The translations under genes were made by a program, and so were the position numbers. The notes below the pieces were generated by a model. The model was not told the DNA's origin and ran no database searches. It saw only the letters and a list, made by a program, of their open reading frames with translations. A stretch of 64,000 bases of DNA, from the IMG/VR virus record IMGVR_UViG_3300047089_000244, positions 96,001 to 160,000 of that record; one strand, written 5' to 3'. The first letter of the stretch is position 1; each line of letters opens with the position of its first letter. Below, one piece after another: positions 42,483 through 62,338 of this stretch. Origin of the DNA: a virus.

Positions 42483-44615
42483 TTACCAACGGGCTCTATT
42501 ACTTCCACGCCTACCCCGTCCACGTCCTAGTGCTCCACGAGTTGGGCTATTGTACTCCTGTTGTGCCTTGCGCTCTTTGCTGAAGGTGTAGGTCTCCAAG
42601 TTAGGAGGTGCTCCACCAGGTCTTAGACCAGTTCCACTGAAGCCAATTCCATATCCTCCCTCGGCACCCCCAAGGACGGCGCTACTGGATAAACGTTCGC
42701 GAGTTCTATTGGCGATTCGATTACCGATAAGGGTATTAACACACTCAGCTACACAATCAGCCATATCCTTTGTCTGCACAGGCCCAATTTCCTGTCTATC
42801 TACGCGCGGGAACTTACTTGTGCCGCCCTGAATCTGAAGGAACTTCAACTCCTGTGAGCACCAGCGCGTGTCCTCTGTGTCATTTGGAGCGTGCACCAAT
42901 TTAGCATAGATCGAGGTCTTGCAAACCTCCCAGCGATGCCAGTTGAGTTCTGCCGTCGCGGGCTTGATATACACGCGCGTAGGAATATTTCGTTCGTTGA
43001 GTTTCTCCGCGAGTTCCTGGACGGGTTGTGTGGACTCATGCTGATCAAAGGTAATCTCGAACGGAAAGAAGAATTCGGCATATTTCATGACCTCATCGAG
43101 AATCGTTGGCCAAACAATAACCCGTCCAGGGAATTTTTTTGGCTCCCATCGCTTAATGAGATCAAAAATTACATGTTCCTCCTGTGCGCCCTTCCAGTCC
43201 TCGATCATCTCTGTATGAGCAATGGCAAATCCGAATCCCGCCGTTGTGCTCGATGGATCTAGATGAAACTTATAACGGAACATATTCGTGGCGTCCTTAC
43301 CCGTGTTAGATGAGAATGGCATCAACACTAGTCTTGGAATCTCAGGGTGGTCGCTCTCCTCCTCATAAAGCCATTCGGATGGTAAACCTGCAAACATCTC
43401 ATCGATACGACGCGGTTCCATATACGCATCTGTTACCTCGGCGAATTTGCCACGGTACTCAACCTTGAATCCCTCGGGATTACCCTGCTCTTCCGCGCGT
43501 GCCGTGCGTGAGAGTTGCTTGTCTTTGTCAGTCCATAAGTTCTCACCGTTCTCATCTTTCTCATCTAGGTCCCAATCAGGCGACGCCATGAGCACAGATT
43601 TAAGCTTAGCGCGATTTTTGGCTTTCTGGTAGCCTTCATATAGTGCCCATGAGGGAAATTGAAAGATGAGTAGGCGAGGTTCACCATTGCGAGCACTCAA
43701 GTCAATACCATCCTCCAGAAGTGGTGCGGGCTCATCGACAGGACTAGTGGAATCAAACGGAAGGAGACCCTCAACGTACTTTTCATAGAAGAGCCCGATC
43801 TTGGTATATGGAGAACTGTTAAGGAACGCCAATCCATCAACACCAAACTGTCCGAGAGATGGGTTCGCGGCTTCGTAAATCTTGTTTGGTGAGGACTTAG
43901 ACTCACCGGGGAGCATGTGCGCGATCTCGTCAATACAATAGGCCATCATGGCGAGTCCACGAATCGTTCCCGAGTTAGCCGCCATGGCGTTACCGCGCAA
44001 GCGTGCAATATCTTTCTGAATACGGTTGCCGCGACTTTTCTCCTGCGAGATGCGCTGAAGATCAATATTAGTCGCTACGCGGATTTCTGTCTCCAGAGAC
44101 TTTACGATATACGGATCGAACGCCTTGCACGTCTCAATAGTAGAAGAGAAATCAGCATATTGTCGCCCCTGAGACTGTTCCTGAGAACCAGCAATGCAGG
44201 AGAAATAGATTTCCTTCTCAGGCGCGATCCCATAATGCGCGCCCGGATCTTGAAGCTGAAGCGTAGACCACATGACCTTGCCCATTGCTAGTCCGGTGCA
44301 GAATCCCTTGGAGCTACGACGACCACCAACCAGGGCGATCTCACGGAAGTGTGGATAGCCAGCATCGCGGAGCCATTGTACGCGCTCGCGTACATTAGGG
44401 GAGATAGTGATCTCCGTGCCGTTACGACCACCCGCAATCCAGTATGAGAGGATGTCCTCCTCTGGGCCGGTAAGCTCCTCCAAGAACATCGTCTTGAGCA
44501 ATACCGCCTGCGCCGGATAGAGATTTTTACCGCAGTAATCCGATGATTCCGCAAACTCTTGAATGCCCGTATCTTTCGGAGCAAGCTGATTAAGCGCTTG
44601 CGCTAGCAGATCCAT
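42483..44615 (-). CDS. terL: terminase large subunit
   Basis: VGGRRSSKG Walker A, YCIDE Walker B, SSP, HLDPS nuclease motif, KDMADC. Confidence 0.9.
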   Translation of the reverse strand: MDLLAQALNQLAPKDTGIQEFAESSDYCGKNLYPAQAVLLKTMFLEELTGPEEDILSYWIAGGRNGTEITISPNVRERVQWLRDAGYPHFREIALVGGRRSSKGFCTGLAMGKVMWSTLQLQDPGAHYGIAPEKEIYFSCIAGSQEQSQGRQYADFSSTIETCKAFDPYIVKSLETEIRVATNIDLQRISQEKSRGNRIQKDIARLRGNAMAANSGTIRGLAMMAYCIDEIAHMLPGESKSSPNKIYEAANPSLGQFGVDGLAFLNSSPYTKIGLFYEKYVEGLLPFDSTSPVDEPAPLLEDGIDLSARNGEPRLLIFQFPSWALYEGYQKAKNRAKLKSVLMASPDWDLDEKDENGENLWTDKDKQLSRTARAEEQGNPEGFKVEYRGKFAEVTDAYMEPRRIDEMFAGLPSEWLYEEESDHPEIPRLVLMPFSSNTGKDATNMFRYKFHLDPSSTTAGFGFAIAHTEMIEDWKGAQEEHVIFDLIKRWEPKKFPGRVIVWPTILDEVMKYAEFFFPFEITFDQHESTQPVQELAEKLNERNIPTRVYIKPATAELNWHRWEVCKTSIYAKLVHAPNDTEDTRWCSQELKFLQIQGGTSKFPRVDRQEIGPVQTKDMADCVAECVNTLIGNRIANRTRERLSSSAVLGGAEGGYGIGFSGTGLRPGGAPPNLETYTFSKERKAQQEYNSPTRGALGRGRGRRGSNRARW

Positions 44616-49116: not shown

Positions 49117-49163
49117 CTATTCTCTACCAGGATGATCCTGGATTATCGCGCCCGTAAGTAAAG

Positions 49164-49232
49164 TCGCTCGTGCAGGAATCGAACCTGCGCCTGAAGATTA
49201 TGATTCTCCTTGGCACCCATAGCCTACGAGCG
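49164..49232 (-). tRNA. tRNA-Met/Ile2 (CAT), short D-arm
   Basis: CGCTCGT/ACGAGCG acceptor; GGAGA-ATCATAA-TCTTC; GGTTCGATTCC. Confidence 0.7.
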
Positions 49233-49378
49233 TGGATTTCACCTACCGCTTGCACGGATCATCGGCTACTCAATGTAACACGCCGTCTACGTACTCCCTA
49301 ATCCGGGGTGCGGTACGTAGCAAGGACAACGTGAGTTAGGTTCGATCCTCCGCTGTCGCAAAGCGGTACGTAACCATA

Positions 49379-49450
49379 AGCGTATAGCCGGGCTCGAACC
49401 GGCGACCCAAGCTTGGAAGGCTTGTGTGTTACCAACTACACTATACACGC
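49379..49450 (-). tRNA. tRNA-Gly(TCC)
   Basis: Cloverleaf; CAAGC-CTTCCAA-GCTTG. Confidence 0.93.
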
Positions 49451-49455
49451 ATAAA

Positions 49456-49902
49456 CTACTTACGCAAGAAAAACTTGTGCCTTTTAGACCCTCTGTAACC
49501 CGTATCTGGGAGACCACCAGGGGTCATTTTCATCTCAGGATTTTTCTCTCGGTAGAGTTTGAACTCCTGAAACGTCGCTGCCGTGTGAGGATCGTCGCGA
49601 TCTACAACCTCGACGCCAAGCGCTGTGACTGAGTGAGGGCGGATCTCCGTGTGACCCTCATCGATGATGAGCTTCGTCTTGAAGCCTCGCTCCTCGATAT
49701 AGTGCTTGATTACCATCAGGTGCATGTCATCCTCTGCCAGCATCACGAGCTTGCAGTAGTGACCGCCCTTGTACCAATCTGCAAGCAGATTGGGGTCGCT
49801 GATCCGGTACGCCTCGACGGCTGCATGCTGCCCCTGAGCAGTCATCTTGCCCGAGGTCATTCCGAGACTTCTATTGATGAAGCTATACATGGCTGTTCGC
49901 AT
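49456..49902 (-). CDS. pth2: peptidyl-tRNA hydrolase, Pth2 type
   Basis: LGMTSGKMTAQGQHAA, KLVM, IIDEGHTEI, TALG; leaderless promoter. Confidence 0.85.
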   Translation of the reverse strand: MRTAMYSFINRSLGMTSGKMTAQGQHAAVEAYRISDPNLLADWYKGGHYCKLVMLAEDDMHLMVIKHYIEERGFKTKLIIDEGHTEIRPHSVTALGVEVVDRDDPHTAATFQEFKLYREKNPEMKMTPGGLPDTGYRGSKRHKFFLRK

Positions 49903-50123
49903 GCACATAGTCTATCACAGAGGCTTGCGCGGTGGGAACACTTCGGACTTTGGTCCTACTGACCGCAGTCTCACTCGCGTTCACCGCGCAAGCTGTCTCC
50001 GAGCAGGGTCTCCGCTGAACGAACGTAGTGTATCACAAGTGCGCCCGCCCAGTTTGACCCAGACGCGCGCATGAGGACCCGAGGTCACCCAGCCGAACTG
50101 AATATGCCCGAAGCTAAGGTCCA

Positions 50124-50195
50124 AGCCTACACTCAGAATCGAACTGAGTTCTCTAGTTTACAAGACTAGCGCGTCACCACTTACGCTTTGCAGGC
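50124..50195 (-). tRNA. tRNA-Thr(TGT)
   Basis: CTAGT-CTTGTAA-ACTAG. Confidence 0.92.
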
Positions 50196-50201
50196 ACATC
50201 A

Positions 50202-50545
50202 TGTAGTCGATAAGCCGGATTCTGTCGTTGGACGATCATCCTTCTCAGTGGCGTGCCGACTAGGCCCAACGACCCTTTGGCGCTTGAGCTAACCCGAGGT
50301 CTCACACGATTCCACTGGTCCCCATGTTACCGGGGACTGCTCCCACCAGCTAATGCCATAGGCAGAGCCCTTAGGCTTCGACACTTGGGATTGCATCTCT
50401 CGGCTTCGTATGCGGTCATAGCGGCCTAAGCCTCCCGCCATCCACGTCACCTATCCAGCACCCCTTGTGAGGGATCTGAGTTTCCCCAGACGAGATGTCC
50501 GGACTTTCCTCGGAGGGATCGGACCTCCGCGATCGTCTGACTACA
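50202..50545 (-). ncRNA. rnpB: RNase P RNA (bacterial type)
   Basis: P1 TGTAGTC/GACTACA; P2 GACGATC/GATCGTC; GAGGAAAGTCCGG and ACAGAATCCGGCTTA forming P4. Confidence 0.92.
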
Positions 50546-50645
50546 GGATCATGATGGGATTCGAACCCACACCTGGGCACTCGCCTCTGCCAATTGATCC
50601 ACTTACAGAGTTCCGTACGCTTCTGCAAGCAGGCCCTACATGATC
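50546..50645 (-). ncRNA. tRNA-like RNA (acceptor and T arm, no D stem or anticodon arm)
   Basis: GATCATG/CATGATC; GTGGG-TTCGAAT-CCCAT. Confidence 0.65.
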
Positions 50646-50793
50646 ACCAAGCTTTCTCAGTCGCACCCTGACACAACTCGACCCGCCAGAGGCGGGCCGG
50701 AAGTGAGGGAACGACCCTCGAACGACTTTCAAGCACTTGTTATATAGCAGGAATCGAACCCGCTAAGGGATATCCTTAGATAATCTTTAGAAA

Positions 50794-50883
50794 CGGTACC
50801 GTGGGGATTCGAACCCAACCGCCTCGTTAGAGCGATTTCCCGCTTGAAAGGCGTTCTGCACTCCAAAGTGCTTTCATGGTACC
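50794..50883 (-). tRNA. atypical long-arm tRNA (9/3 allo-tRNA-like; loop CTTTCAA)
   Basis: GGTACCATG/CACGGTACC; GCACT-TTGG-AGTGC; long variable arm; GGG-TTCGAAT-CCC. Confidence 0.55.
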
Positions 50884-50900
50884 CTGTGGTCGAACAGGTG

Positions 50901-51263
50901 TCAAGAGCCGTGTGTACGCTCCCGGTGGCAGTTCGAGCAAACGACCTCGCACTTGTCGATCTCCTCCTGGATAACTTCCAGGCGATATCGTTGTGCTACG
51001 AGCCAATTGACACTGCCAAACTTCTCCCCACGTACATGATCGAAGTCCATGACGTAGGGCGGATACTGGACCCCGCAGTCGGCACAAGGAACTTCCTTTT
51101 GCGCGTTGATGTGCGCCATGATCTCAGCACGTTTGTTTGCCGCCCAGGTGTTGCGCTTGATCTTCCACTCGGATAGCTGGTGCTCCGCGAGGTAGCGATC
51201 CTTGTTGCGCTGGTAACTCCGTTGTTGAGCGGCGCGCTGCTTGCCTTTGTCCTTGTACGGCAT
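50901..51263 (-). CDS. HNH endonuclease-like protein
   Basis: PCADCG..MDFDHVRGEK..EIDKCEVVCSNCHRERT. Confidence 0.85.
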   Translation of the reverse strand: MPYKDKGKQRAAQQRSYQRNKDRYLAEHQLSEWKIKRNTWAANKRAEIMAHINAQKEVPCADCGVQYPPYVMDFDHVRGEKFGSVNWLVAQRYRLEVIQEEIDKCEVVCSNCHRERTHGS

Positions 51264-51295
51264 GCACATTACACACCAGGATGGGTTCACTTCCA

Positions 51296-51368
51296 AGCAG
51301 CAGATGGGACTCGAACCCACAACCTCCACCTTGGCAAGGTGGCGCTCTAGCCATTGAGCTACTACTGC
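51296..51368 (-). tRNA. tRNA-Gly(GCC)
   Basis: CCACC-TTGCCAA-GGTGG. Confidence 0.95.
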
Positions 51369-51572
51369 GCGTGCGACTCGTTTCTTCGCGAGGAGAGTCA
51401 CCATCCCCGTCCATTTTTATCCGCCCTACGCTTCGCTTGTCCCCGGAGGGGCGGGTTTCAAACCGCGCTTATCGTGTATATGGGCCTTCTACGAAGTGAG
51501 TAGCTCATCACGAACGGGACGCGCGAAGGTCGTCGTGAACTTCCTCCAGCAATGACCGCATTATGAGCTAAG

Positions 51573-51649
51573 TCCCCCGTGCTGGAGTCGAACCAGCCTA
51601 CTATGAGCTTCCACGATGCCATCTCATTGTAAGTCCAGGCACCGAAGAA
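51573..51649 (-). ncRNA. tRNA 3'-half / tRNA-like element resembling the 3' end of tRNA-Arg(TCG)
   Basis: GCTGG-TTCGACT-CCAGC-ACGGGGGA. Confidence 0.55.
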
Positions 51650-52155
51650 ATGCAAGCTCGCCAGTAACCACCCACAAAGGCCGTTCGTTTCCGATGGCAG
51701 TTCGAACAGAGCACATCGCACTTGGCAATCTCAGTTTCTATCGTTGGCACATCGTAACCTGATGCAGTCATGTCAGACACCGCAGCAACCTTCTGACTGG
51801 GGTCGCGATGATCAAAGTCAAGCACAACCGGATCAGACTCGCCACAATTGATACAGGGATGCTTTTGAAGGTAGTCCCAAATCCATGCTTGCGCGCGCTC
51901 CTGAACAATCCTTTTGCGAGCTTTCGTCCTTGCTTTGATACGATCCTTGTTCCGTAAATAGTGCGCGTCTGAAACGATCTTCTGACATGCTTTACAGTGA
52001 GCTTGATGTTTGTCGCCTTTGGTAGCAAACTCTTTGAGTGGCTTCTCAAGTTCGCATTTACCGCAGATCTTAGTCCCCCCGGCTGGAATCGAACCAGCGA
52101 CGGTCGTGGATTCGAAGTCCACCGCTCTGTCCTCTGAGCTACGAAGGGTTGTCAT
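51601..52155 (-). CDS. HNH endonuclease-like protein whose frame runs through tRNA-Arg(TCG)
   Basis: KICGKC..C..C; HPCINCGE.D..VLDFDHRD..EIAKCDVLCSNCHRKRT. Confidence 0.75.
   Translation of the reverse strand: MTTLRSSEDRAVDFESTTVAGSIPAGGTKICGKCELEKPLKEFATKGDKHQAHCKACQKIVSDAHYLRNKDRIKARTKARKRIVQERAQAWIWDYLQKHPCINCGESDPVVLDFDHRDPSQKVAAVSDMTASGYDVPTIETEIAKCDVLCSNCHRKRTAFVGGYWRACISSVPGLTMRWHRGSS
52074..52148 (-). tRNA. tRNA-Arg(TCG)
   Basis: GTGGA-CTTCGAA-TCCAC. Confidence 0.9.
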
Positions 52156-52184
52156 ACCTATTATCATCGCGTATTGACTTCGAA

Positions 52185-52367
52185 TCAGGCATGAGGTTCG
52201 AAGTCCCACCAACGTCGCATAGTTTCAAGAGCGACCTCGGCAATATCTCGATATTCGTCACGGACCTCTTCGTGCGCTTCGAGCCAAGGTATAGCTCGCG
52301 CAGAAAAGTCTTTCTCCTCAGCCTCATAAATGGCTTGAGCTACTCGCTCTATCAATTTCGTCTCCAT
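52185..52367 (-). CDS. small phage protein (IERVAQAIY family)
   Basis: ERVA.AIY..W......RD.YR..A..AL..MR. Confidence 0.65.
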   Translation of the reverse strand: METKLIERVAQAIYEAEEKDFSARAIPWLEAHEEVRDEYRDIAEVALETMRRWWDFEPHA

Positions 52368-52369
52368 TT

Positions 52370-52409
52370 AGATTCGAAGTCTCAGGTCCTCATCCGTAGG
52401 ACAGGGGAA
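52370..52409 (-). pseudogene. 5' half of a tRNA-Arg(TCG)
   Basis: D arm GTCCT-ACGGATG-AGGAC, then TGAGA-CTTCGAA-TCT; no T arm follows. Confidence 0.6.
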
Positions 52410-52411
52410 GG

Positions 52412-52486
52412 ACTCCTGGCTGTTTGCGACAGCATCTCCCACTTAAAAGGCGGGGCTCTATTGCAGGCACTTTGAGCTACAGGAGG
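52412..52486 (-). tRNA. degenerate tRNA-Lys(TTT) (long D-loop, non-canonical T-loop)
   Basis: CTCCTG/CAGGAG; CCGC-CTTTTAA-GTGG; GCTGT-CGCAA-ACAGC. Confidence 0.6.
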
Positions 52487-52488
52487 AG

Positions 52489-52561
52489 TGGGTCGTCCCG
52501 GACTCGAACCGGGAATTGTCTCCTTAAGAGGGAGGTGCTCTTACCATTTAGCTAACGACCC
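52489..52561 (-). tRNA. tRNA-Lys(CTT)
   Basis: CTCC-CTCTTAA-GGAG. Confidence 0.92.
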
Positions 52562-52670
52562 AAAAACCCCGGCTCTCACGGTCACGCACACGAGCCGCTT
52601 ATCAGGCGACGCTCGCATACCATCCCGGTTCCACCGGGTCTGGGAACCGCATTTCGGTTCCGAGGCTTAG

Positions 52671-52743
52671 TCCCCTTGACTGGATTTGAACCAGTGACTT
52701 CCTCCTTCGCAGGGAGGCACTCTATCCACTGAGCTACAAGGAG
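52671..52743 (-). tRNA. tRNA-Arg(GCG)
   Basis: CCTCC-CTGCGAA-GGAGG. Confidence 0.92.
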
Positions 52744-52810
52744 AGGTAAAGCGAGTATTTAGCGCCCTCGCTCACGGCTGTCTCTAGCATGGCCAATGGC
52801 CAAAGCCAGA

Positions 52811-53416
52811 TCATCTTGAAAACTTGTTTTCCTGCCAATCATGCAAGAGCGTATACTCATACGAGCTTGGATCACCACCGATAATCAAATCAAAGAGGAC
52901 TGGTCTTACGTCCTTCAAGCTTTCGATCAGATGGTCAGCAATATCGCACTCCGCCTTTGTGAGATATGGAGCAATAGATTTGTTGCTCTGCCCGTCTCGG
53001 AGATGTAAGGCTCGGTGCCAGCCGATACAGGCCGGGATCGTGCAATAGGACCGAGGTGCATAGTTGATGTAGTCCGGAAGCTCCAGCATCAACCAACGTG
53101 GCACAAAATGGTGCCGTGTGATGGCACCTTCGCAATCCTTCGGCTCGTCGTGGTAGCGACAAACTAAAGGGCGCTGCGTAGCTAGGGCGCGAGCCTTCTT
53201 CTGTTCGATGATCTTGTGCGGTATCAGTCCGCTATTGTGATTGAGTCGCCAGAGTACAGCACGGGTAGAGAGACGTTCATCAAGAAGATCATCGATCTCC
53301 GCGTCCTCCATTTCCGCAAGCACTTCTAGCTGCTCAACAGTAGCTTCTGAGTCATAGGAATCGAACCAAAAGACCTCTCCCGTGACAGGATGTGTCCAGT
53401 CTCGTGCTCGTGACAT
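52811..53416 (-). CDS. HNH-like protein
   Basis: C..C..ITRHHFVP..TIPAC..WHRALH. Confidence 0.6.
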   Translation of the reverse strand: MSRARDWTHPVTGEVFWFDSYDSEATVEQLEVLAEMEDAEIDDLLDERLSTRAVLWRLNHNSGLIPHKIIEQKKARALATQRPLVCRYHDEPKDCEGAITRHHFVPRWLMLELPDYINYAPRSYCTIPACIGWHRALHLRDGQSNKSIAPYLTKAECDIADHLIESLKDVRPVLFDLIIGGDPSSYEYTLLHDWQENKFSR

Positions 53417-53453
53417 ACCTATAGTATACAGGGTATGTCAAGGTTCGAAAAAG

Positions 53454-53528
53454 TAGCCCGTGCGGGATTCGAACCCGCGTTCACGCGGCCTGAGAAGCCG
53501 GTATCCTAAACCACTAGACCAACGGGCC
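53454..53528 (-). tRNA. tRNA-Glu(CTC)
   Basis: CGGC-TTCTCAG-GCCG. Confidence 0.92.
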
Positions 53529-53589
53529 ATAAAGCTATCTGGGCGAGGTACGGATCTATTGAGAATCCGCTGTCATTCCAGATAGCAAG

Positions 53590-53662
53590 TACTCCTCCCA
53601 GGACTCGAACCTGGAACCATTCGCATATAAGACGAAAGCTCTAACCATTGAGCTAGAGGAGC
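53590..53662 (-). tRNA. tRNA-Ile(TAT)
   Basis: TTCGT-CTTATAT-GCGAA. Confidence 0.88.
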
Positions 53663-53672
53663 ATGCGGCCCC

Positions 53673-54267
53673 TCACAAGGAGGGACCGTTAATTGCTTCA
53701 CAGGTGCTAGACAGCAAACGGGGCGTTTGTTCCTTGAACTTTTCGCCTCCGTAAGATGTTTCATTGTGAGACTGACTCGACCAGGTTATTTCACCACCCC
53801 GATACGGTTTTCTCTGATACCATTCTTCCCAGTACCACGGATACCGGCGGGCCGGGATGGGTACAGAATAGGGCTGAGGTACTGGCCTTGAAGCCAACTC
53901 CGCCTTGAGTAAACGAATACAGTCATCGGTTGTCGGGTCCTTGCCGTGACTATGCCACGAGAGCCCACAAATAGAGCAAATCGTTGAAACGGCGATTGGC
54001 TCAGGTTTTGTTAATTTCTTTCGTGCTGCCATGATTTTCTACAGAGAGGCCCGAAGACATTTCACCGCGATTGACTCGTTTTTCGGTCATTCCACCCCAA
54101 ACATGACCTCGTGCAGAATCGAGTGCTTTACCCGCTGACGAAGTGGTCATATTCAATGCTTGACCAATCTGGGGAACCGTATTACCATCAAAGTACATCT
54201 TGAAGGCTTCGTATTCCGTCGCGTTGAGACAGTACACAGCTTCTATGTCTTGCCTCCCCATTTTCAT
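53673..54267 (-). CDS. two small ORFs (53673-54032; 54001-54267 with sigma70-region-4/LuxR-like HTH)
   Basis: L...EYEAF.MY.DG.T..QIG..LNMT. Confidence 0.55.
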
Positions 54268-54301
54268 CCTCCTTTAGGACGTTTTGGTTTGAGTACTACA
54301 G

Positions 54302-54374
54302 GGTGGCCAGAGGGAATCGAACCCTCATCGCCGGGATCACAACCCGGAGTTCTAACCGTTGAACTATGGTCACC
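54302..54374 (-). tRNA. tRNA-His(GTG), encoded G-1
   Basis: CCGGG-TTGTGAT-CCCGG. Confidence 0.94.
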
Positions 54375-54378
54375 ATGA

Positions 54379-54472
54379 TGCGCCAGAGAAGACGCGACCC
54401 TCCTGTCCTTCGGCTCGGGGGCCTGTGCTAGCACAACCCACTGTCCGCTGCTCCGCTCTGAGCTACTGGCGC
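54379..54472 (-). ncRNA. tRNA-like RNA with extended non-canonical anticodon region
   Basis: GCGCCAG/CTGGCGC-A; TAGCTCAG..GAGC D arm; aberrant T-loop. Confidence 0.55.
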
Positions 54473-54473
54473 A

Positions 54474-54548
54474 TATCCCCTCTCGGATTCGAACCGAGAC
54501 TGTACTGGGCTTAAACCAGTTCCCTCTGCCAGTTGGAGTAAGGGGACA
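54474..54548 (-). tRNA. tRNA-Leu(TAA), short variable arm
   Basis: ACTGG-TTTAAGC-CCAGT. Confidence 0.9.
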
Positions 54549-54554
54549 AGATAG

Positions 54555-54625
54555 ATGGAGAACAGGGATTCGAACCCCGATTGAGAGCTTCAAAGGCTCC
54601 GGTCTTGCCATTAGACGATTCTCCA
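54555..54625 (-). tRNA. tRNA-Gln(TTG)
   Basis: GAGC-CTTTGAA-GCTC. Confidence 0.92.
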
Positions 54626-54702
54626 AAGTAATCGGCGCGGATATCCACGGGTTAGGGGGCGAGAACCTAATCTCTTGCGCTAAACCGCCTTGTACCGATT
54701 AG

Positions 54703-54773
54703 CTGGAGAACAGGGACTCGAACCCCAATGACAACGCTCAGAACGTTGCATCTTGCCATTAGATGATTCTCCA
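54703..54773 (-). tRNA. tRNA-Gln(CTG)
   Basis: CAACG-TTCTGAG-CGTTG. Confidence 0.92.
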
Positions 54774-54780
54774 AAGTACA

Positions 54781-54853
54781 TAGCAGACCCGAGAATCGAA
54801 CTCGGCTCTCAAGCTTATGGGGCTCGAATGGTCGTCCAGACCACCTGTCTGCA
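54781..54853 (-). tRNA. tRNA-Met(CAT), 1:72 mismatch (initiator-like), C33
   Basis: CGAGC-CCCATAA-GCTTG. Confidence 0.8.
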
Positions 54854-54855
54854 AA

Positions 54856-54939
54856 TGCCCACCGGGAGATTCGAACTCCCACACCTTTTCAGATAGCGCC
54901 TTTTGAGGACGCCGCGTCTACCATTCCAGCCAGGTGGGC
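54856..54939 (-). tRNA. tRNA-Leu(CAA)
   Basis: GCGTC-CTCAAAA-GGCGC; long variable arm. Confidence 0.92.
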
Positions 54940-55006
54940 GTATTTATGATAATTGCCTTGTGCACGCGAGGCAAATTTTTCCGAGGCGGGACTTCCTTCC
55001 TCAGAA

Positions 55007-55078
55007 TTGGAATACTAGGACTCGAACCTAGAATACCACCGTATCAGAGTGGCGTGATAACCATTTCACTATATTCCA
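55007..55078 (-). tRNA. tRNA-Ile(GAT)
   Basis: CCACT-CTGATAC-GGTGG. Confidence 0.88.
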
Positions 55079-55079
55079 G

Positions 55080-55151
55080 CGGATCTGAGAGGAATCGAAC
55101 CTCTGACGCGCGGTTCTTCAAACCGCCGCTCTACCCCTGAGCTACAGATCC
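55080..55151 (-). tRNA. tRNA-Phe(GAA)
   Basis: GCGGT-TTGAAGA-ACCGC. Confidence 0.93.
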
Positions 55152-55454
55152 AGGGTTACTTCTTGACACGAGTAATCTCCTCAAGGTCGTCATAAAGCTT
55201 AGGTAGGTTCTCCTCGAACGCACACTCTAAGCATTTGCCAATCTTGGGCAAAGCTCTCTTTGTACAACCCGATTCACTACAAACGCCGGGCCTCATGAAT
55301 TGTGGGATGTTAATATCTTCTTCATTCATTTTGCGTATCCTGAAAAGGTAAAAAAGTAAGATAGCCCCTCCTAGAAGGAGCCCTTGTTTCATATACCCAG
55401 TCATCACTCGTTATACAACGGGTGATGCAAGAAAATGAGCGGAAGGTGAAGGAG

Positions 55455-55811
55455 TCAAGGATTAGGAGAACGACTACTATTGCAACGCAAGTGAGAGAAA
55501 GCAATGTTCTCCATATCCCAAAACAAATCCGCATCGACACCCAACCAAGATTGCTTATGCTCAATACTTAAATCAGATTCATTCTCAATGATCCCTCCGC
55601 AATGAAAGCAAACATTCCGATCGGTATCACAAACGAGCATAAAAAGAACCTTCTTGCGCAATCTATGCGCTGCGGTGCCCCATGGCATACCCAACTGTTC
55701 CGCCTTCTTCAGGTGGCTTTTCGACGGAATCACCGTCCCGTCAGCCTTACGTTCCTTGTAACGACGTGCATTATATTTACGCACGGCCTCTTTATCCCTG
55801 GATACGGGCAT
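55455..55811 (-). CDS. HNH-like protein
   Basis: CFHCG..LSIEHK..W..NIAFSHLRCN; leaderless TGATATACT promoter. Confidence 0.75.
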   Translation of the reverse strand: MPVSRDKEAVRKYNARRYKERKADGTVIPSKSHLKKAEQLGMPWGTAAHRLRKKVLFMLVCDTDRNVCFHCGGIIENESDLSIEHKQSWLGVDADLFWDMENIAFSHLRCNSSRSPNP

Positions 55812-55830
55812 ACGGAATAGTATATCATAA

Positions 55831-55914
55831 CGGAAGCGTAGAGAGTCGAACTCTAGAGGGCTCATCACCCCAGGCGGGTTCAAACCGCTGTCCTCAGCCA
55901 ACCGGATCACTTCC
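55831..55914 (-). tRNA. tRNA-Ser(TGA)
   Basis: GCGG-TTTGAAC-CCGC; long variable arm; G73. Confidence 0.88.
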
Positions 55915-55972
55915 AAGGGGGTCCGTCCGAGAGCCTTGTTCAGGCCGGGGACGGCTGCCCCGTTGAGTTGAG

Positions 55973-56043
55973 ACGCGACGGCGAGAATTGAACTCGCGTA
56001 GGCGGGTTTGCAATCCGCTGGATGGCCTCTATCCTACGTCGCG
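55973..56043 (-). tRNA. tRNA-Cys(GCA)
   Basis: GCGGA-TTGCAAA-CCCGC; U73. Confidence 0.85.
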
Positions 56044-56049
56044 ATGAAG

Positions 56050-56120
56050 CTGGAAGGCTCGGACTCGAACCGAGAATACCTGGTTAACGGCCAGGTGTGA
56101 TGCCATTTCACTACCAACCA
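56050..56120 (-). tRNA. tRNA-Asn(GTT), C33, mismatched acceptor
   Basis: CCTGG-CCGTTAA-CCAGG. Confidence 0.8.
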
Positions 56121-56279
56121 ATGTTGTACTGGTACGCCTCGGCTACTTATTGTCGGTTTCGTGTAGGTACGAGATCCGAGTTGACCGACCTCTCGGTCGA
56201 GCTATCGACTTACCACCCGTCACCCGTGTACACATCCAGCTTGGGCCGGGAATGACCTACGACCAGTACGGTACTACAG

Positions 56280-56365
56280 CGGAAGGGGTGGGATTCGAAC
56301 CCACGGTGGCTCTCGCCACACTGCCTTAGCGGGGCAGCACAATAATCCATCTCTGCCACCCTTCC
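56280..56365 (-). tRNA. tRNA-Ser(GCT), C33
   Basis: CTGCC-CCGCTAA-GGCAG. Confidence 0.88.
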
Positions 56366-56448
56366 AGGTGCGCCAGTGTCAGTTGATCCATAGCCTGGCG
56401 CATCCACAGTTATGGCCGCTTGCTTTCCCTGCATGCTGGTACTTGCAA

Positions 56449-56523
56449 AGCCCCTAGCGGGATTCGAACCCACGCAGTGCATCGCTTAGGAAGCGACCGC
56501 TCTATCCTCTGAGCTATAAGGGC
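56449..56523 (-). tRNA. tRNA-Arg(CCT)
   Basis: GTCGC-TTCCTAA-GCGAT. Confidence 0.92.
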
Positions 56524-56699
56524 ATACTATCGGCGAGGGAAACGAGGAGCACCCGTATCTTTAGTAATTGACTTAAAGATTTTCGCCACAAATGTTAAAA
56601 CTATAAATAGCCAAAGAAAATAGAACACTAGGCATGTGATACCTACTATTAGTAGTATCAAAAAAGCGACATGTTTTCCTTTGGTTGGGGTGCAAAAAG

Positions 56700-57045
56700 T
56701 GGACCATCCCGGAATCGAACCGGGGTCTTGTTGTGATTATCGATCTAGCTATCTAGCATCTTGGGACAGGCTTGGCCCGTCTCCACCACTCGGTTTATGT
56801 CCGAGAACATACTGCTTTCGCGGGGTGCTACCATGAGCACTTTCTGTTCCTAGGTATGTGCTCCTACCCGGCGCTGGCGATTAAGCCAGAGCGAGATGTG
56901 TCTCGCGTGCCGTGAAGCTTCCATCAAGGAAGCTTGCCGGAATAGCGAGAGTATCATCATTGCCAGTTATGGCTTGTGCGATTTAGGTGTCGCAACCGAT
57001 GCACTAGAGGGACTCTCGGGCAACAATCGAATACCCATATGGCCC
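56700..57045 (-). ncRNA. ssrA: tmRNA, tag (A)GNDDTLAIPASFLDGSFTARETHLALA*
   Basis: Acceptor GGGCCAT/ATGGTCC-A with G3:U70; T arm CCCGGTTCGATTCCGGG; ATAACT-GGC resume site; tag ends LALA-TAA. Confidence 0.93.
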
Positions 57046-57289
57046 ATGTACCTGCCACGAATCGGGCAACAATCCCTATCCGCAGGTCCTACAGGGGAGG
57101 GAATCCCATCCTGTAGCTGATGCTTGCGGGCGAGGCTAGATAGCACCTCGCCCGCCGACATTACTCGACTGACTCAGTACTGCTGGATCACCCCCTAAGT
57201 TGAAAGGACAAGACACCTAAGGCAGGTACGCCTCCTCGGTTCTAGAAACCGAGCACCCTTACATCTTGTGGTGACGTTTAAGGTGTCAG

Positions 57290-57361
57290 TGGACGATCAG
57301 GGTATCGATCCCCGTACCTCCCGCCTGTCAAACGGGTGCTCTCCCATTGAGCTAATCGTCC
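57290..57361 (-). tRNA. tRNA-Val(GAC)
   Basis: CCCGT-TTGACAG-GCGGG. Confidence 0.9.
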
Positions 57362-57500
57362 TAGCCCCCATCGCGTCTGTTCGCTCCCATGGAGCTACTA
57401 AGACCATAGGTACTAGGGCAAACCCCAGGACTACTAATGATATACTAATGATGGACCGACATGATGGGCCTTACCCCACCCGGCCTAGACATCCACCAAG

Positions 57501-57574
57501 TGCTCGATGAAGGAATCGAACCTTCGACACGTTGGGTGTAAACCAACTGCTCTAAACCACTGAGCTAATCGAGC
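57501..57574 (-). tRNA. tRNA-Val(TAC)
   Basis: GTTGG-TTTACAC-CCAAC. Confidence 0.93.
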
Positions 57575-57739
57575 ATACAAAAACCGCCCTCTCCTTGCTT
57601 CAAAAAGCTCAGAGAGTATTGTCATCTCCGCTGCTCACGGAGTTTGCAGGGCTGAGCAGTTCCCCTGGCGATAGTGAGTTGGCAGTCAGTCCACAACCCT
57701 AACAAGGGTGTGCTGTACCTAGCTGTTCACCACAGCTAG

Positions 57740-57811
57740 CGATTCCACGGGGGATCGAACCCCGACTTGCTCCTGGACAGGGAGCCGTGATGGCCATTTC
57801 ACTATGGAACC
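57740..57811 (-). tRNA. tRNA-Asp(GTC), C37
   Basis: GCTCC-CTGTCCA-GGAGC. Confidence 0.9.
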
Positions 57812-57903
57812 AAGGGTCTGGCATTGCGGGAGTCTATCCACCGGAAGCCAGACAGTAACGTCTACAGGTCATGACTCCCGTAGTTTGCGAGACTAATTCG
57901 CAG

Positions 57904-57972
57904 CGGGGCGAGAAGGAATTGAACCCTCGCCTGCGGGTTTGGAATCCGCTTGGTCACCATGACCTTCACCCC
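57904..57972 (-). tRNA. tRNA-Trp(CCA)
   Basis: GCGGA-TTCCAAA-CCCGC. Confidence 0.85.
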
Positions 57973-58180
57973 ATGTGTACTAAAGCTTTTCTCCTTTGCA
58001 GATCCCGATACAGTGCTGTCCGGAACTTTGTAAACCAGTTCGGATCATCAGGATCGTAAGCTTCGAGCGCCGCTTGGTTCGCGGCAGCGAAAACGTGCGG
58101 TTGTAGCTCCTCCTGCTTGAGAGGACGGTTCAAATATCTCAACGGTAGTAGTTCCGATACCATGCGAATCACTATACCAA

Positions 58181-58252
58181 AGCCAACACTCGGAGTCGAA
58201 CCGAGTTTCCACGCTTACGAAGCGCGTGCATCGCCGTCAATGCTTTGCTGGC
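58181..58252 (-). tRNA. tRNA-Thr(CGT)
   Basis: CGCGC-TTCGTAA-GCGTG. Confidence 0.92.
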
Positions 58253-58340
58253 ACAAGAAGCAACCCGTCCTGAGGACGCCGAAGGGACTCAGCCGCGTCC
58301 ACGACAGGACTCACGTCCCTTTATTCGTGTGTTACTTCTA

Positions 58341-58412
58341 AGCCTACACTCAGAATCGAACTGAGGATGCTCGCATACCAAGCGAGTGTGATACCACTTA
58401 CACTATGTAGGC
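58341..58412 (-). tRNA. tRNA-Thr(GGT)
   Basis: CTCGC-TTGGTAT-GCGAG. Confidence 0.92.
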
Positions 58413-58546
58413 ACGAAGGTCCGGTAGCATACCCACTGTCGTCACAGTATAGGGCAGAGGCTTGACCGGACCGTACAACAGCCTCTCTATGAGAGGGCGC
58501 TCCGTCCGCGATCCCTCTACCGGGGGCCGACCGAGCAATCTTTGAG

Positions 58547-58620
58547 TCAGGATAGGAGGATTTGAACCTCCGACCTCTCCCATCCGAGGGGAGCGCTCTA
58601 CCAAGCTGAGCCATACCCTG
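58547..58620 (-). tRNA. tRNA-Pro(CGG)
   Basis: CTCCC-CTCGGAT-GGGAG. Confidence 0.94.
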
Positions 58621-58709
58621 ATGCGACCGGCTGCGATCTACTGGTTGTTACACCAGGTCTGCACGGTCACGCGACCAAGACAGGGCATTGCCGAAGTCCA
58701 AATCGCTAG

Positions 58710-58804
58710 TGCGCCTGATGGGATTTGAACCCACATCCGTCGGTGTGAAAAACCGATGCTGGGGACAGGTTATGAAGCTGCCTCTACCATTCAGCTACAG
58801 ACGC
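58710..58804 (-). tRNA. atypical tRNA (TTC anticodon, Glu) with an extra hairpin in the D-loop
   Basis: GCGTCTG/CAGGCGC; D stem GCTG/CAGC encloses GGCAG-CTTCATAAC-CTGTC; TCGGT-TTTTCAC-ACCGA. Confidence 0.7.
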
Positions 58805-58904
58805 TAGTTGTGCTCCCTACCGTTTGAGCCGGAAAACCGATCGCAGAACGGCTCGCCTGGGTTTACCCTAATCTCCGGAAGCACAGAGAGATGGCGAAAC
58901 TACA

Positions 58905-58979
58905 TCGGGATGGCCGGATTCGAACCGACGATCGCCCGCTTCCAAGGCGGCCATGTTAACCAGACTACACCACATCCCG
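58905..58979 (-). tRNA. tRNA-Pro(TGG)
   Basis: CCGC-CTTGGAA-GCGG. Confidence 0.92.
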
Positions 58980-59014
58980 TGGTTCCCTAGTCCGTGCTGA
59001 GCGGACGAAGGGAG

Positions 59015-59086
59015 TGGAGGACAGGGGAGTCGAACCCCTAACTCTGCCGTGCAAAAGCAGTGTGTTCCCATTAGCACCAGTCCCCC
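59015..59086 (-). tRNA. tRNA-Ala(TGC)
   Basis: G3:U70; CTGCT-TTTGCAC-GGCAG. Confidence 0.93.
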
Positions 59087-59185
59087 TGGTGAAATCCGCA
59101 GGCTCGGCTCGCGGACTGAGTACAATCTGGGCGCTCTCATCCCATCTCATATGTTTACGGGCTGCCGATTCAGACCGTCCTACAG

Positions 59186-59257
59186 TGCCTCCGTGGGGAA
59201 TCGAACCCCAGCTTACCGATTAAAAGTCGGTGGGTCTACCACTAACCATACGGAGAC
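59186..59257 (-). tRNA. tRNA-Lys(TTT)
   Basis: ACCGA-CTTTTAA-TCGGT. Confidence 0.9.
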
Positions 59258-59374
59258 AAGACCCAGAACAGAGCGCAGACGCTTCAAAGCGGTAAGGCTC
59301 CACATCTGCGATTACTCTGGGGTACTACCCTTCATTCATATGTGGTTTATCAAGTGCCGGAGTCATGTCCGGAG

Positions 59375-59457
59375 TGCTGTCCGGGGGAGTCGAACCCCCA
59401 TGCTCTTACGAGCGGCCGGTTCTAAGCCGACTGCGTATACCATTCCACCAGGACAGC
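59375..59457 (-). tRNA. tRNA-Leu(TAG)
   Basis: GTCGG-CTTAGAA-CCGGC. Confidence 0.93.
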
Positions 59458-59543
59458 AAATTGTCGGTCGCGATTCCTGCATCCACCGACGGTATCTCTT
59501 GAACGTGATCAAATCGCTCTCACTACCGTACTTCTTACAGGAG

Positions 59544-59627
59544 TGCGCCAGGAGGGACTTGAACCCTCACGCCCTTGCGGGCACACGGATCTGAACCGTG
59601 CTCGTCTACCGATTCCGACACTAACGC
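59544..59627 (-). tRNA. tRNA-Leu(CAG)
   Basis: CACGG-TTCAGAT-CCGTG. Confidence 0.93.
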
Positions 59628-59776
59628 AAATGGTTGTCCACGAGGGTTGATTATTCCCCCACTTCGCATCCACTACTAACACCAAGATCAGGTGTACTCG
59701 GGCTCTACTTGGTTACCCGTACCCAATTGCTTTCGCTTCAACTCCTCTTTCTTCCCTATCGGAAGAAGATGGACAG

Positions 59777-59859
59777 TGCGCTGAGTGGGATTCGAACCCA
59801 CACGGGCCGAAGCCCACTGCCTCCTCAAGGCAGCACGTCTACCTTTCCATCACCAGCGC
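59777..59859 (-). tRNA. tRNA-Leu(GAG)
   Basis: CTGCC-TTGAGGA-GGCAG. Confidence 0.93.
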
Positions 59860-60037
59860 GGGATGTTTATGATAAAGTCCCGCATACGCGAGACCAATTT
59901 TTCTGAAAGACAAAGCCCTTTGGTAGGCCGGTTATGTTTGCTCCGCTGCTCAGCCAGACGCAAATTTAATCCCTGGACAATCTGAGAACTGATGCTCCCC
60001 GCGCCCCTTACCTGGAGGTCACGACCAAAAGACTTAG

Positions 60038-60123
60038 TGCGTGCCGAGAGATTCGAACTCCCATTCCAGAGACTGGAGGGTGGGTTACAGCCACCTGCGA
60101 CAAACCGTATTCGCGTGACACGC
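60038..60123 (-). tRNA. tRNA-Tyr(GTA)
   Basis: GGTGG-CTGTAAC-CCACC; long variable arm. Confidence 0.9.
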
Positions 60124-60346
60124 ATGATACATCAGGTCCTTGATTCCGGGCGCGATCCGACGAGCAACTTGATCCCACGACCTTACTCGTTTCGGGACCA
60201 TGCGGTATGGTTACCGCTGCACTCAAGGGTTTTGCCCTGATGTGGAGGCGTTGGGTATGTCCTACAGCTATGAGGGACTATGTACGGTGCCTTCTGTGCC
60301 GTTCGGCAGGTACTATAGCAGATCCGAAAACCCACTTCCTGCTTAG

Positions 60347-60419
60347 AGCCCCTGGCGGGATTCGAACCCGCGACCATCGGGGTAGAAATCCGATGCTCTG
60401 TCCTCTGAGCTACAAGGGC
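60347..60419 (-). tRNA. tRNA-Arg(TCT)
   Basis: TCGGA-TTTCTAC-CCCGA. Confidence 0.92.
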
Positions 60420-61137: not shown

Positions 61138-61833
61138 TCAGGCACCATGTTCCTTTCCCTTGTCGTCATTCTTGATCGTGGTCTTGAAGAGTGAGTTGCT
61201 GTGCTTGTGGTAGGTTACGATCCCCTCCGGGTCCATGAACCCAGGTGCCGCCGATGATCCACGCACCTTGAGGGTCGAGAGGACGCCCTTGATGGCGGCC
61301 GTATCGAACTCCTCTAGTTCCGCGAGCACTGGTACAACGTGGCAGCAGTCTGGGCGACGAGTCCCGTTGTCGTTGTACTCGCCGTTCCATCGCGCCGTGT
61401 TGAAGAGGCTGAATCGCTTCTCCTCCAATCCGTATTTGCGCTGGATACCTGCGCCCCACCACTCGCCGAAGTGAACGCCGACTCCAAGGCCCATCGCCAG
61501 TTCGCGTGCGTGCTCGCGTACCCATTTGGCGAAGCCGAAGTTGTCCTGTTCCGGAGAGAGGACCTGCTTGCGCGACTGCGCGTAAACGAAGACTGGCTCC
61601 CAGCCATCCAGCTTGTGGCCGTCCGTGTTGATCACGATGCCCGGACCAACGACCTCCTCATCGCCGTAGTTGTAGGGAACCATGTCGCTCACCACGACAG
61701 CGGCGTTGGTACCATCGATCTTCTCGGTGATGACGACCGGGCGGAAGAGCCTCCCGATCTTCGGGAAGGGAGTGAAGTCTGCCTGTGGAATGAATGCGTC
61801 CTCCGGTATACGTACCTGCGCGTTGAGATCCAT
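61138..61833 (-). CDS. RNA ligase, Rnl2 family
   Basis: FPKI.R; TEKIDGTNA; QSR; DNFGFA.W; FGEWWG.GIQ; F.LFN; PEGIV; FKTT. Confidence 0.88.
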   Translation of the reverse strand: MDLNAQVRIPEDAFIPQADFTPFPKIGRLFRPVVITEKIDGTNAAVVVSDMVPYNYGDEEVVGPGIVINTDGHKLDGWEPVFVYAQSRKQVLSPEQDNFGFAKWVREHARELAMGLGVGVHFGEWWGAGIQRKYGLEEKRFSLFNTARWNGEYNDNGTRRPDCCHVVPVLAELEEFDTAAIKGVLSTLKVRGSSAAPGFMDPEGIVTYHKHSNSLFKTTIKNDDKGKEHGA

Positions 61834-61837
61834 GTCC

Positions 61838-62338
61838 TCAAGACCCATCCCACTCAACCTCCATGTATCCGTTCTCATTGCCACGATATCCTACAGCAAG
61901 ACTCTCGATCAATTGCCATGCTGATATGACTCTCGTTACACCGCCATATCCTCTCATTTGTTCGATCACATCCCCTGGAGTTGGGTCCTCCGGCGCATCT
62001 CCATCCGGCCAAACCTCATCAACAGATAGCTCCACATCGGGGAATGAAATAAGAAACTTGCGCTGCTCAGAAGTGGGTGTCTGTCCTGTGCGGTCCATGA
62101 TACTGTCATAAAGTTTCTCAAGTTGCTCCGGCCCATACTCGTCCGATGTCTCCTCAGATTTGAACGCGACGAGAGGCATCTGTATGACAGAACTATCAAC
62201 CAAACGTTCAATAGCATTTGCTAATAGATGGATTGCGCATTCAATCTCCGTTGTATTAGAGAATTGTTTAGGTAACACGCGGCGGGCTTGAACTACCAAG
62301 TCCTTGACCGCGCGCTCCCTTGTAGAGTCTTCCATCAA
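61838..62338 (-). CDS. hypothetical protein
   Basis: ORF track; L.VDEVWPDGDAPE.PT motif. Confidence 0.6.
   Translation of the reverse strand: MMEDSTRERAVKDLVVQARRVLPKQFSNTTEIECAIHLLANAIERLVDSSVIQMPLVAFKSEETSDEYGPEQLEKLYDSIMDRTGQTPTSEQRKFLISFPDVELSVDEVWPDGDAPEDPTPGDVIEQMRGYGGVTRVISAWQLIESLAVGYRGNENGYMEVEWDGS

Follow-up and report, generated by a model that had tools for sequence, protein, structure and literature searches.

A predicted bacterial-type RNase P RNA with a rebuilt periphery in the tRNA array of a large phage

The DNA analysed here, a stretch of 64,000 nucleotides that we refer to as the window, belongs to a phage represented by an IMG/VR record of 169,966 bp that is rated 100% complete. 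Its terminase, which we used as the clade marker for phage relatives, is 34% identical to the annotated terminases of Bxz1-like mycobacteriophages, and the phage is a distant relative of Bxz1. The features that matter for this study are listed in Table 1. The tRNA array comprises 36 minus-strand tRNAs detected by ARAGORN and one more detected by Rfam, together with a tmRNA and a few tRNA-like elements, a content close to the "about 40 tRNAs" of the original prediction. Most of these tRNAs are ordinary by Rfam score (43–70 bits), some are spaced by 1–7 nt, and none of the 37 genes encodes CCA. Besides the CCA-type enzyme, an RNA ligase and the peptidyl-tRNA hydrolase PTH2, the genome also encodes ClpP. 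The protein with the CCA-type enzyme at its C terminus is multi-modular and starts with a YunG-like domain.

Table 1. Features of the RNase P RNA locus and of the surrounding phage DNA
Feature	Position	Strand	Basis or remark
RNase P RNA gene, P1 to P1, 344 nt	50202..50545	-	RF00010 full-length match; helices mapped
CR-I and P4 5' strand	50498..50511	-	Sequence; pairs with 50212-50219
P5 and rebuilt S-domain, 104 nt	50394..50497	-	Helix map; cellular median 171 nt
J5/15 (CAA), P15, P16/P17-like arm, L15 GGU	50341..50393	-	Helix map
P18 hairpin, GUAA-type loop	50318..50337	-	Helix map
Extra helix between P18 and J18/2	50246..50317	-	Helix map
J18/2 (CR-IV) and P2 3' strand	50231..50245	-	RF00010 alignment, helix map
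CR-V and P4 3' strand	50211..50225	-	RF00010 alignment, sequence, helix map
tRNA-like element, upstream of P RNA	50546..50645	-	RF00005 26.8 bits, below cut-off; fold
Sigma-70-like promoter match, 10/12	50876..50904	-	Consensus match only; ~330 nt upstream of P RNA
tRNA-Thr(UGU)	50124..50195	-	ARAGORN and Rfam; start 6 nt past P1
Peptidyl-tRNA hydrolase PTH2	49456..49908	-	PF01981 E 1e-17
tRNA array, 37 tRNAs	49163..60419	-	ARAGORN and Rfam
tmRNA	56699..57045	-	ARAGORN
RNA ligase	61138..61884	-	PF09414 E 2e-11
Terminase	42483..44615	-	34% identity to Bxz1-like mycobacteriophage terminases
1235-aa protein, C-terminal CCA-adding/poly(A) polymerase-family nucleotidyltransferase and HD	26399..30106	-	PF01743, PF12627, PF13735, PF01966

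In the tRNA-like element upstream of the P RNA, the acceptor stem and T arm are normal, but the D and anticodon arms are abnormal and the middle is long and irregular; its discriminator base directly adjoins the 5' end of the P RNA. It is kept in the related contigs X2 and X6 and is missing from a third, in which a tRNA-Gly lies immediately next to the P RNA. Sigma-70-like sites numbered 12 against 9.7 expected, and hence the promoter match is weak. Several further elements of the array deserve mention. Directly after the promoter-like site, at 50795–50872 (minus strand), lies a tRNA missed by both ARAGORN and Rfam. Its D stem and variable arm are long and its anticodon is UCA, so that it may be selenocysteine-like or a UGA reader. 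Both programs also missed a probable tRNA-Ser(UGA) at about 55830–55915 (minus strand), which overlaps the call of a 153-aa HNH-like ORF, and a tRNA found by Rfam only (58710–58804, minus strand, 60.9 bits) has UCA within an enlarged anticodon loop, and its variable arm is long. HNH-like ORFs, recognized by eye from Cys/His motifs, interrupt the array at 50901–51275, 51601–52049 and 55455–55916 (minus strand), the first of them being missing from three related contigs. Just past tRNA-Thr, an ORF-poor and hairpin-rich stretch (49990–50120, minus strand; MFE −48 kcal/mol over 131 nt) is possibly another structured RNA.

It had been predicted from the letters alone that the array harbours an RNase P RNA gene, and a covariance-model match, a conserved core, covariation and synteny in relatives all speak for this identity; as far as sequence analysis can tell, the locus is a bacterial-type RNase P RNA gene inside a phage tRNA array. 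The Rfam model RF00010 aligns to 50195–50548 over model positions 1–367 with 56.9 bits (E 1.4e-16 locally, 5.8e-18 over the whole genome), which is far beyond chance. The covariance-model check that had been proposed thus came out as a match from end to end, but one whose score lies below the RF00010 gathering cut-off of 100 bits. Because of this low score, routine annotation misses the gene: a default Rfam scan of the window reported no RNase P, and this blank was rejected as evidence of absence after an E-value scan gave the full-length match. No ORF of more than 70 aa overlaps the gene, whole-molecule MFE folding was uninformative (z −0.92), and a blastn search against 50,697 cultured phage records returned no homologue. 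While right on identity, the original prediction had overlooked the sub-threshold score, the rebuilt S-domain and the commonness of such genes in large phages, all of which are described below.

The catalytic domain is canonical, with all hallmarks in place. The two P4 strands lie where they had been predicted, on the minus strand, and form 8 bp with a bulged U at 50503; among relatives this helix is 100% paired, with two-sided changes at four of its eight pairs. P1 (50545–50539 with 50208–50202, 7 bp) and P2 (7 bp) close the molecule, the predicted boundaries coincide exactly with the ends of P1, and P3, foreseen as short, is a 6-bp hairpin. Together with P5, P15, CR-IV (J18/2) and the J5/15 adenosine, these helices make up a core that places the RNA, as predicted from its sequence, in the RNase P RNA family. 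The L15 GGU, which in bacterial RNase P pairs with the RCCA end, is found at 50347–50345 and is kept in all eight RNAs compared. The bulged U is the equivalent of E. coli U69, and the J5/15 CAA that of A248. U69, A248 and the GGU have been named as metal- and substrate-contacting, and CR-I, CR-IV, CR-V, the J5/15 adenosine and the L15 GGU, all of which are present here, are among the functionally important elements of the ribozyme (PMC11143913).

The periphery has been rebuilt, and we ascribe the low RF00010 score to its non-canonical parts, namely the S-domain, CR-II/III and the extra helix. The S-domain has P8 with a GAAA loop, P9, a weak P10, P11 and a P12 of 3 bp, and is devoid of P13 and P14. 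P5 continues straight into a 2-bp P7, an arrangement seen in two of the 86 cellular P RNAs that formed our comparison set, and since this leaves no J5/7, the P6 pseudoknot, in which J5/7 pairs with L17, cannot form. P12 is flanked by two diverged strands, one CR-II-like (50437–50433) and one CR-III-like (50422–50416). The CR-II consensus is found in 84 and the CR-III consensus in 72 of the 86 cellular RNAs; both consensus motifs are missing from all eight RNAs of the phage clade. The strands at these positions are conserved, of the right length and in the right place beside P12, with a U...A pattern in seven of the eight, and these stand-ins may still form the interleaved T-loops that read the tRNA elbow. 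With CR-II and CR-III rewritten and P6, P13 and P14 missing, elbow binding may nevertheless be weakened. The P16/P17 arm and P18 are present, both with compensatory changes; the L17 tip varies freely in the clade, one relative having an insertion of about 100 nt. At the extra helix, the 66-nt tip is replaced in related phages by an 8-nt hairpin cap, with the joint (50248–50315) seen in three sequencing runs.

How the RNA relates to the known structural classes can be judged from these features. With class A (RF00010; E. coli M1 RNA, rnpB) it has in common the order P1–P5, P7–P9, P11, P12 and P15–P18, as well as CR-I, CR-IV, CR-V, the P4 bulged U, the J5/15 adenosine and the L15 GGU; class A is its best Rfam match, over the whole model, and outscores the other members in clan competition. 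However, the phage RNA differs from class A in having no J5/7, no P6 and no P13/P14 (the last two being variable within class A), in its non-consensus CR-II/III, in the extra helix after P18, in its tRNA-array setting without rnpA and in its score of 56.9 against 100 bits. With class B (RF00011) it has the absence of P6 and P13/P14 in common, but P5.1, P10.1, P15.1 and P19 are not found in the fold, and the P16/P17-like arm is kept. On present sequence criteria it would fit neither class: its score and the lack of P6 set it apart from class A, and the missing signature helices from class B. Archaeal type T RNAs are minimal P RNAs with an intact catalytic domain and a reduced periphery, and this combination is common to the window RNA, the type T RNAs and the small phage RNAs from IMG/VR. 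These miniature molecules, however, are about 150–230 nt long with most of the S-domain gone, whereas the window RNA has 344 nt and retains P8, P9, P11 and P12; with the miniature phage RNAs it further has in common the tRNA-array setting and tRNA punctuation.

Homologous RNAs were found in the tRNA arrays of seven terminase-related IMG/VR phages. Those of G003, G005, G006 and the very divergent G020 score 25–63 bits with RF00010, and those of G008, G012 and G019 are invisible to this model and were found by synteny and with the nhmmer profile that we used for clade searching. A further RNA, in G022, was found by motif and is grouped with these on its architecture. The clade RNAs are 51–72% identical to the window RNA. 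In G020 (L078:900–1420, 25 bits) the P RNA has 500 nt; its P3 and its extra helix are both long, and it carries a P19-like insertion. In seven of the eight RNAs compared, P1 begins 0–1 nt past the discriminator of a tRNA or tRNA-like element that lies upstream and that differs between phages, and tRNA-Thr follows 3–6 nt after P1 in five of the eight.

Six phage RNAs were aligned with MAFFT; in this alignment, which was left unedited, 95.7% of the cells pair and two-sided changes occur in 18 of the 40 pairs, a result reached by none of 500 shuffles; in slid controls 25–47% paired. When helices were fitted by hand in eight RNAs, a procedure that favours the model, 497 of 500 cells pair and 46 of 68 positions show two-sided changes. 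Nearly all P RNAs have A-U and G-C at two P4 pairs where four of the relatives have G-C and U-G, so that P4 covaries too; alternatively, this variant can be read as a shift of the bulge by a single pair. In the window RNA and the two relatives closest to it, P4 is of the usual kind. Related contigs from three soil sequencing runs, belonging to two studies, retain the gene order PTH2, tRNA-Thr, P RNA, tRNA and differ at 3/332, 4/231 and 23/332 letters of the RNA region (1–7%), and at 69/351, 61/308 and 44/266 letters of the adjacent PTH2 gene (17–20%). The compensatory changes together with this far lower divergence than that of PTH2 indicate that the P RNA is under purifying selection on structure and is not decaying.

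In the regions searched with RF00010, the pattern and the profile, the related phages G014 and G015 gave no P RNA, and neither did Bxz1, which has a similar tRNA array; from the latter it would follow that the gene is a supplement to such an array rather than a requirement for it. Cellular rnpB dominated the output of one metagenome scan and one genome scan, neither of which added a member to the clade. The clade motif matched at chance level in 401 Thermoleophilia genomes (a clade RNA in none of the 30 loci fetched), and a sequencing-run search listed no holder of the RNA. In the near-identical run X1 no contig covers the RNA, a gap that carries no weight either way.

One of the relatives, G012, is a provirus in Solirubrobacter sp. 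URHD0082 (GCA_000425945.1), a strain also referred to as 'Candidatus S. pratensis' (PMC10722151). The bacterial genome encodes its own rnpB and rnpA, both normal and scoring 247 and 98 bits, and an RF00010 scan of it does not pick up the provirus copy of the P RNA. The window terminase is 45% identical to that of this provirus, and the host of the window phage is likely to be a member of the Thermoleophilia (Solirubrobacterales-like). With Solirubrobacterales rnpB the phage RNA has in common a P4/P5 signature (an A-U pair closing P4 and a CAUC/GAUG P5), and the P8 stem and 3' end are alike, which suggests descent from such a gene; the signature is also found in Verrucomicrobiota and others, and the rnpB sample was selected on it. 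In contrast to the phage RNA, the Solirubrobacter host rnpB is an ordinary class A molecule with P6, P13, P14 and consensus CR-II/III, but no P18. In passing, we note that a bin labelled Burkholderia (L322) carries a Solirubrobacterales-type rnpB on a contig of 70% GC, probably through bin contamination.

RnpA binds a surface of the P RNA made up of P2, J3/4, J5/15 and J18/2, and bacterial P RNAs need this protein at cellular salt. The absence of a recognizable RnpA from the window, which had been pointed out before, extends to the whole phage genome: a search with PF00825 at E≤10 gave no match, no RNR-like motif was found in ORFs of at least 60 aa, tblastn with the host RnpA gave no match (best E 7.7), and neither HARP nor a metallo-beta-lactamase RNase Z-type domain was found. 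RnpA was likewise not found in 37 other phage records. Since neither RnpA nor HARP was found in the genome, nor RnpA in the other records, and since a normal rnpA is present in the bacterium that harbours a related provirus, the best inference is that the phage RNA uses host RnpA.

We consider it probable that the RNA is an active ribozyme, excised from the tRNA transcript, which together with RnpA borrowed from the host matures about 37 CCA-less tRNAs and the tmRNA. According to this model, the P RNA would be transcribed within the array and released by tRNA punctuation. Host enzymes would generate its 5' end when they process the 3' end of the tRNA or tRNA-like element upstream, and its 3' end would result from an RNase P cut before tRNA-Thr, probably in trans and first by the host RNase P. 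A cut at tRNA-Thr in cis seems unlikely, since only 3–6 nt separate P1 from the cleavage site. The RNA would then bind host RnpA through its canonical core, and the resulting enzyme would remove the 5' leaders of the phage tRNAs and of the tmRNA, the latter belonging to a known class of RNase P substrates. The L15 GGU would pair with CCA ends added beforehand by the phage or host CCA enzyme; as CCA is not encoded in the phage tRNA genes, such pairing requires prior 3' maturation. In this way, processing capacity may be added or replaced during infection of a high-GC Thermoleophilia (Solirubrobacterales-like) host. That the CCA-type enzyme, RNA ligase, PTH2 and ClpP share a genome with the P RNA provides supporting context.

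A more far-reaching interpretation, which we regard as rather doubtful, is that the molecule represents a new and active structural type (not A, B, C or T), in which the rewritten elbow module, and in sister phages the altered P4, go together with RnpA-free activity or a specificity distinct from that of the host, giving the phage a private tRNA-maturation channel. Independence from host RnpA can also be proposed by itself, the ribozyme acting either alone, stabilized by its extra helices, or with an unrecognized phage protein. The absence of RnpA from this genome and the 37 other records would fit this idea, as would the gain of P18 and the extra helix relative to the host RNA and the many small phage proteins of no known family; however, the RnpA-binding surface is canonical, the motif and tblastn searches revealed no candidate protein, and the protein requirement at cellular salt applies to bacterial P RNAs, so that we hold this to be unlikely. 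Likewise improbable to us is an active enzyme with shifted specificity, directed at odd phage substrates (tRNA-like punctuation elements, and Sec-like or closely spaced tRNAs) or at host RNAs. CR-II and CR-III are rewritten in all eight RNAs with the U...A closing pattern kept in seven, several abnormal tRNA-like elements adjoin the gene, and about a quarter of the tRNAs begin with U or C, but most tRNAs of the array are ordinary, and mimics consisting of an acceptor stem plus T arm are already cut by bacterial RNase P (PMC11143913).

The best conserved part of the RNA is its protein-binding core and it scores below the family cut-off, as might be expected of a decoy that sequesters host RnpA and shuts down host tRNA maturation. 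This is very unlikely, however, as the substrate-contacting parts (L15 GGU, J5/15 adenosine, bulged U and P11/P12 module) are conserved too, and the phage's own tRNAs require 5' maturation. In spite of the low Rfam score and the P5 signature in common with Solirubrobacterales rnpB, it is hardly credible that the locus is a relic, a host rnpB once captured and now in decay, or that the assembly has taken in a piece of host DNA, for the relic is largely refuted by the contig divergence and the MAFFT covariation, with compensatory changes throughout the helices and the RNA present in the arrays of seven related phages, and a host fragment is at odds with phage tRNAs on both flanks in a genome rated complete.

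P RNA genes appear, from sequence, to be common in large phages. When IMG/VR was scanned three times with exact motifs, at least 46 distinct P RNAs proved to have four or more tRNAs within 3 kb; they range from canonical class A to less than 200 nt, and 20 of them have the variant P4. As variants fall below annotation thresholds, their true distribution is underestimated. No paper describing a phage-encoded RNase P RNA was found in the literature covered, which excluded most subscription papers, and within the same coverage the only viral candidate was the RNase P-like RNA of camelpox and other orthopoxviruses, which has some structural similarity only and was inactive in vitro (PMC3001073). 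Unlike that RNA, the window RNA has a full core that is conserved and covarying, and it is sited among its presumed substrates. New here are the rebuilt architecture at full size, which could be followed through one phage lineage, and the copy in a cultured bacterium.

If the RNA is the active, host-RnpA-borrowing ribozyme that we favour, a catalytic RNA joins the list of translation parts carried by phages, and a phage P RNA would explain how the tRNAs of large arrays could mature while the host is being shut down. RNase P RNA is regarded as one of the core ribozymes of cells, and here a phage lineage keeps one under strong structural selection. The natural variants, which relax supposedly invariant positions (CR-II and CR-III, and P4 in relatives), are ready-made probes of what the ribozyme requires. 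As the provirus copy resides in a cultured Solirubrobacter alongside the bacterium's own rnpB and rnpA, its expression and processing and the sharing of RnpA are directly testable.

Two further observations concern viral P RNAs at large. The variant P4, with G-C and U-G beside the bulged U and a matching 3' strand, recurs among viral P RNAs whose architectures are unrelated, in about 29 distinct molecules, 20 of them in tRNA arrays (loci within L402–L490, e.g. L443, L409, L449, L464 and L484, as well as L377, L381, L388 and L394). Very small phage P RNAs, in which CR-I is only about 110 nt away from the 3' strand of P4, are found in the tRNA arrays of large AT-rich phage contigs (L408, L432, L449, L454, L460, L465, L467 and L490).
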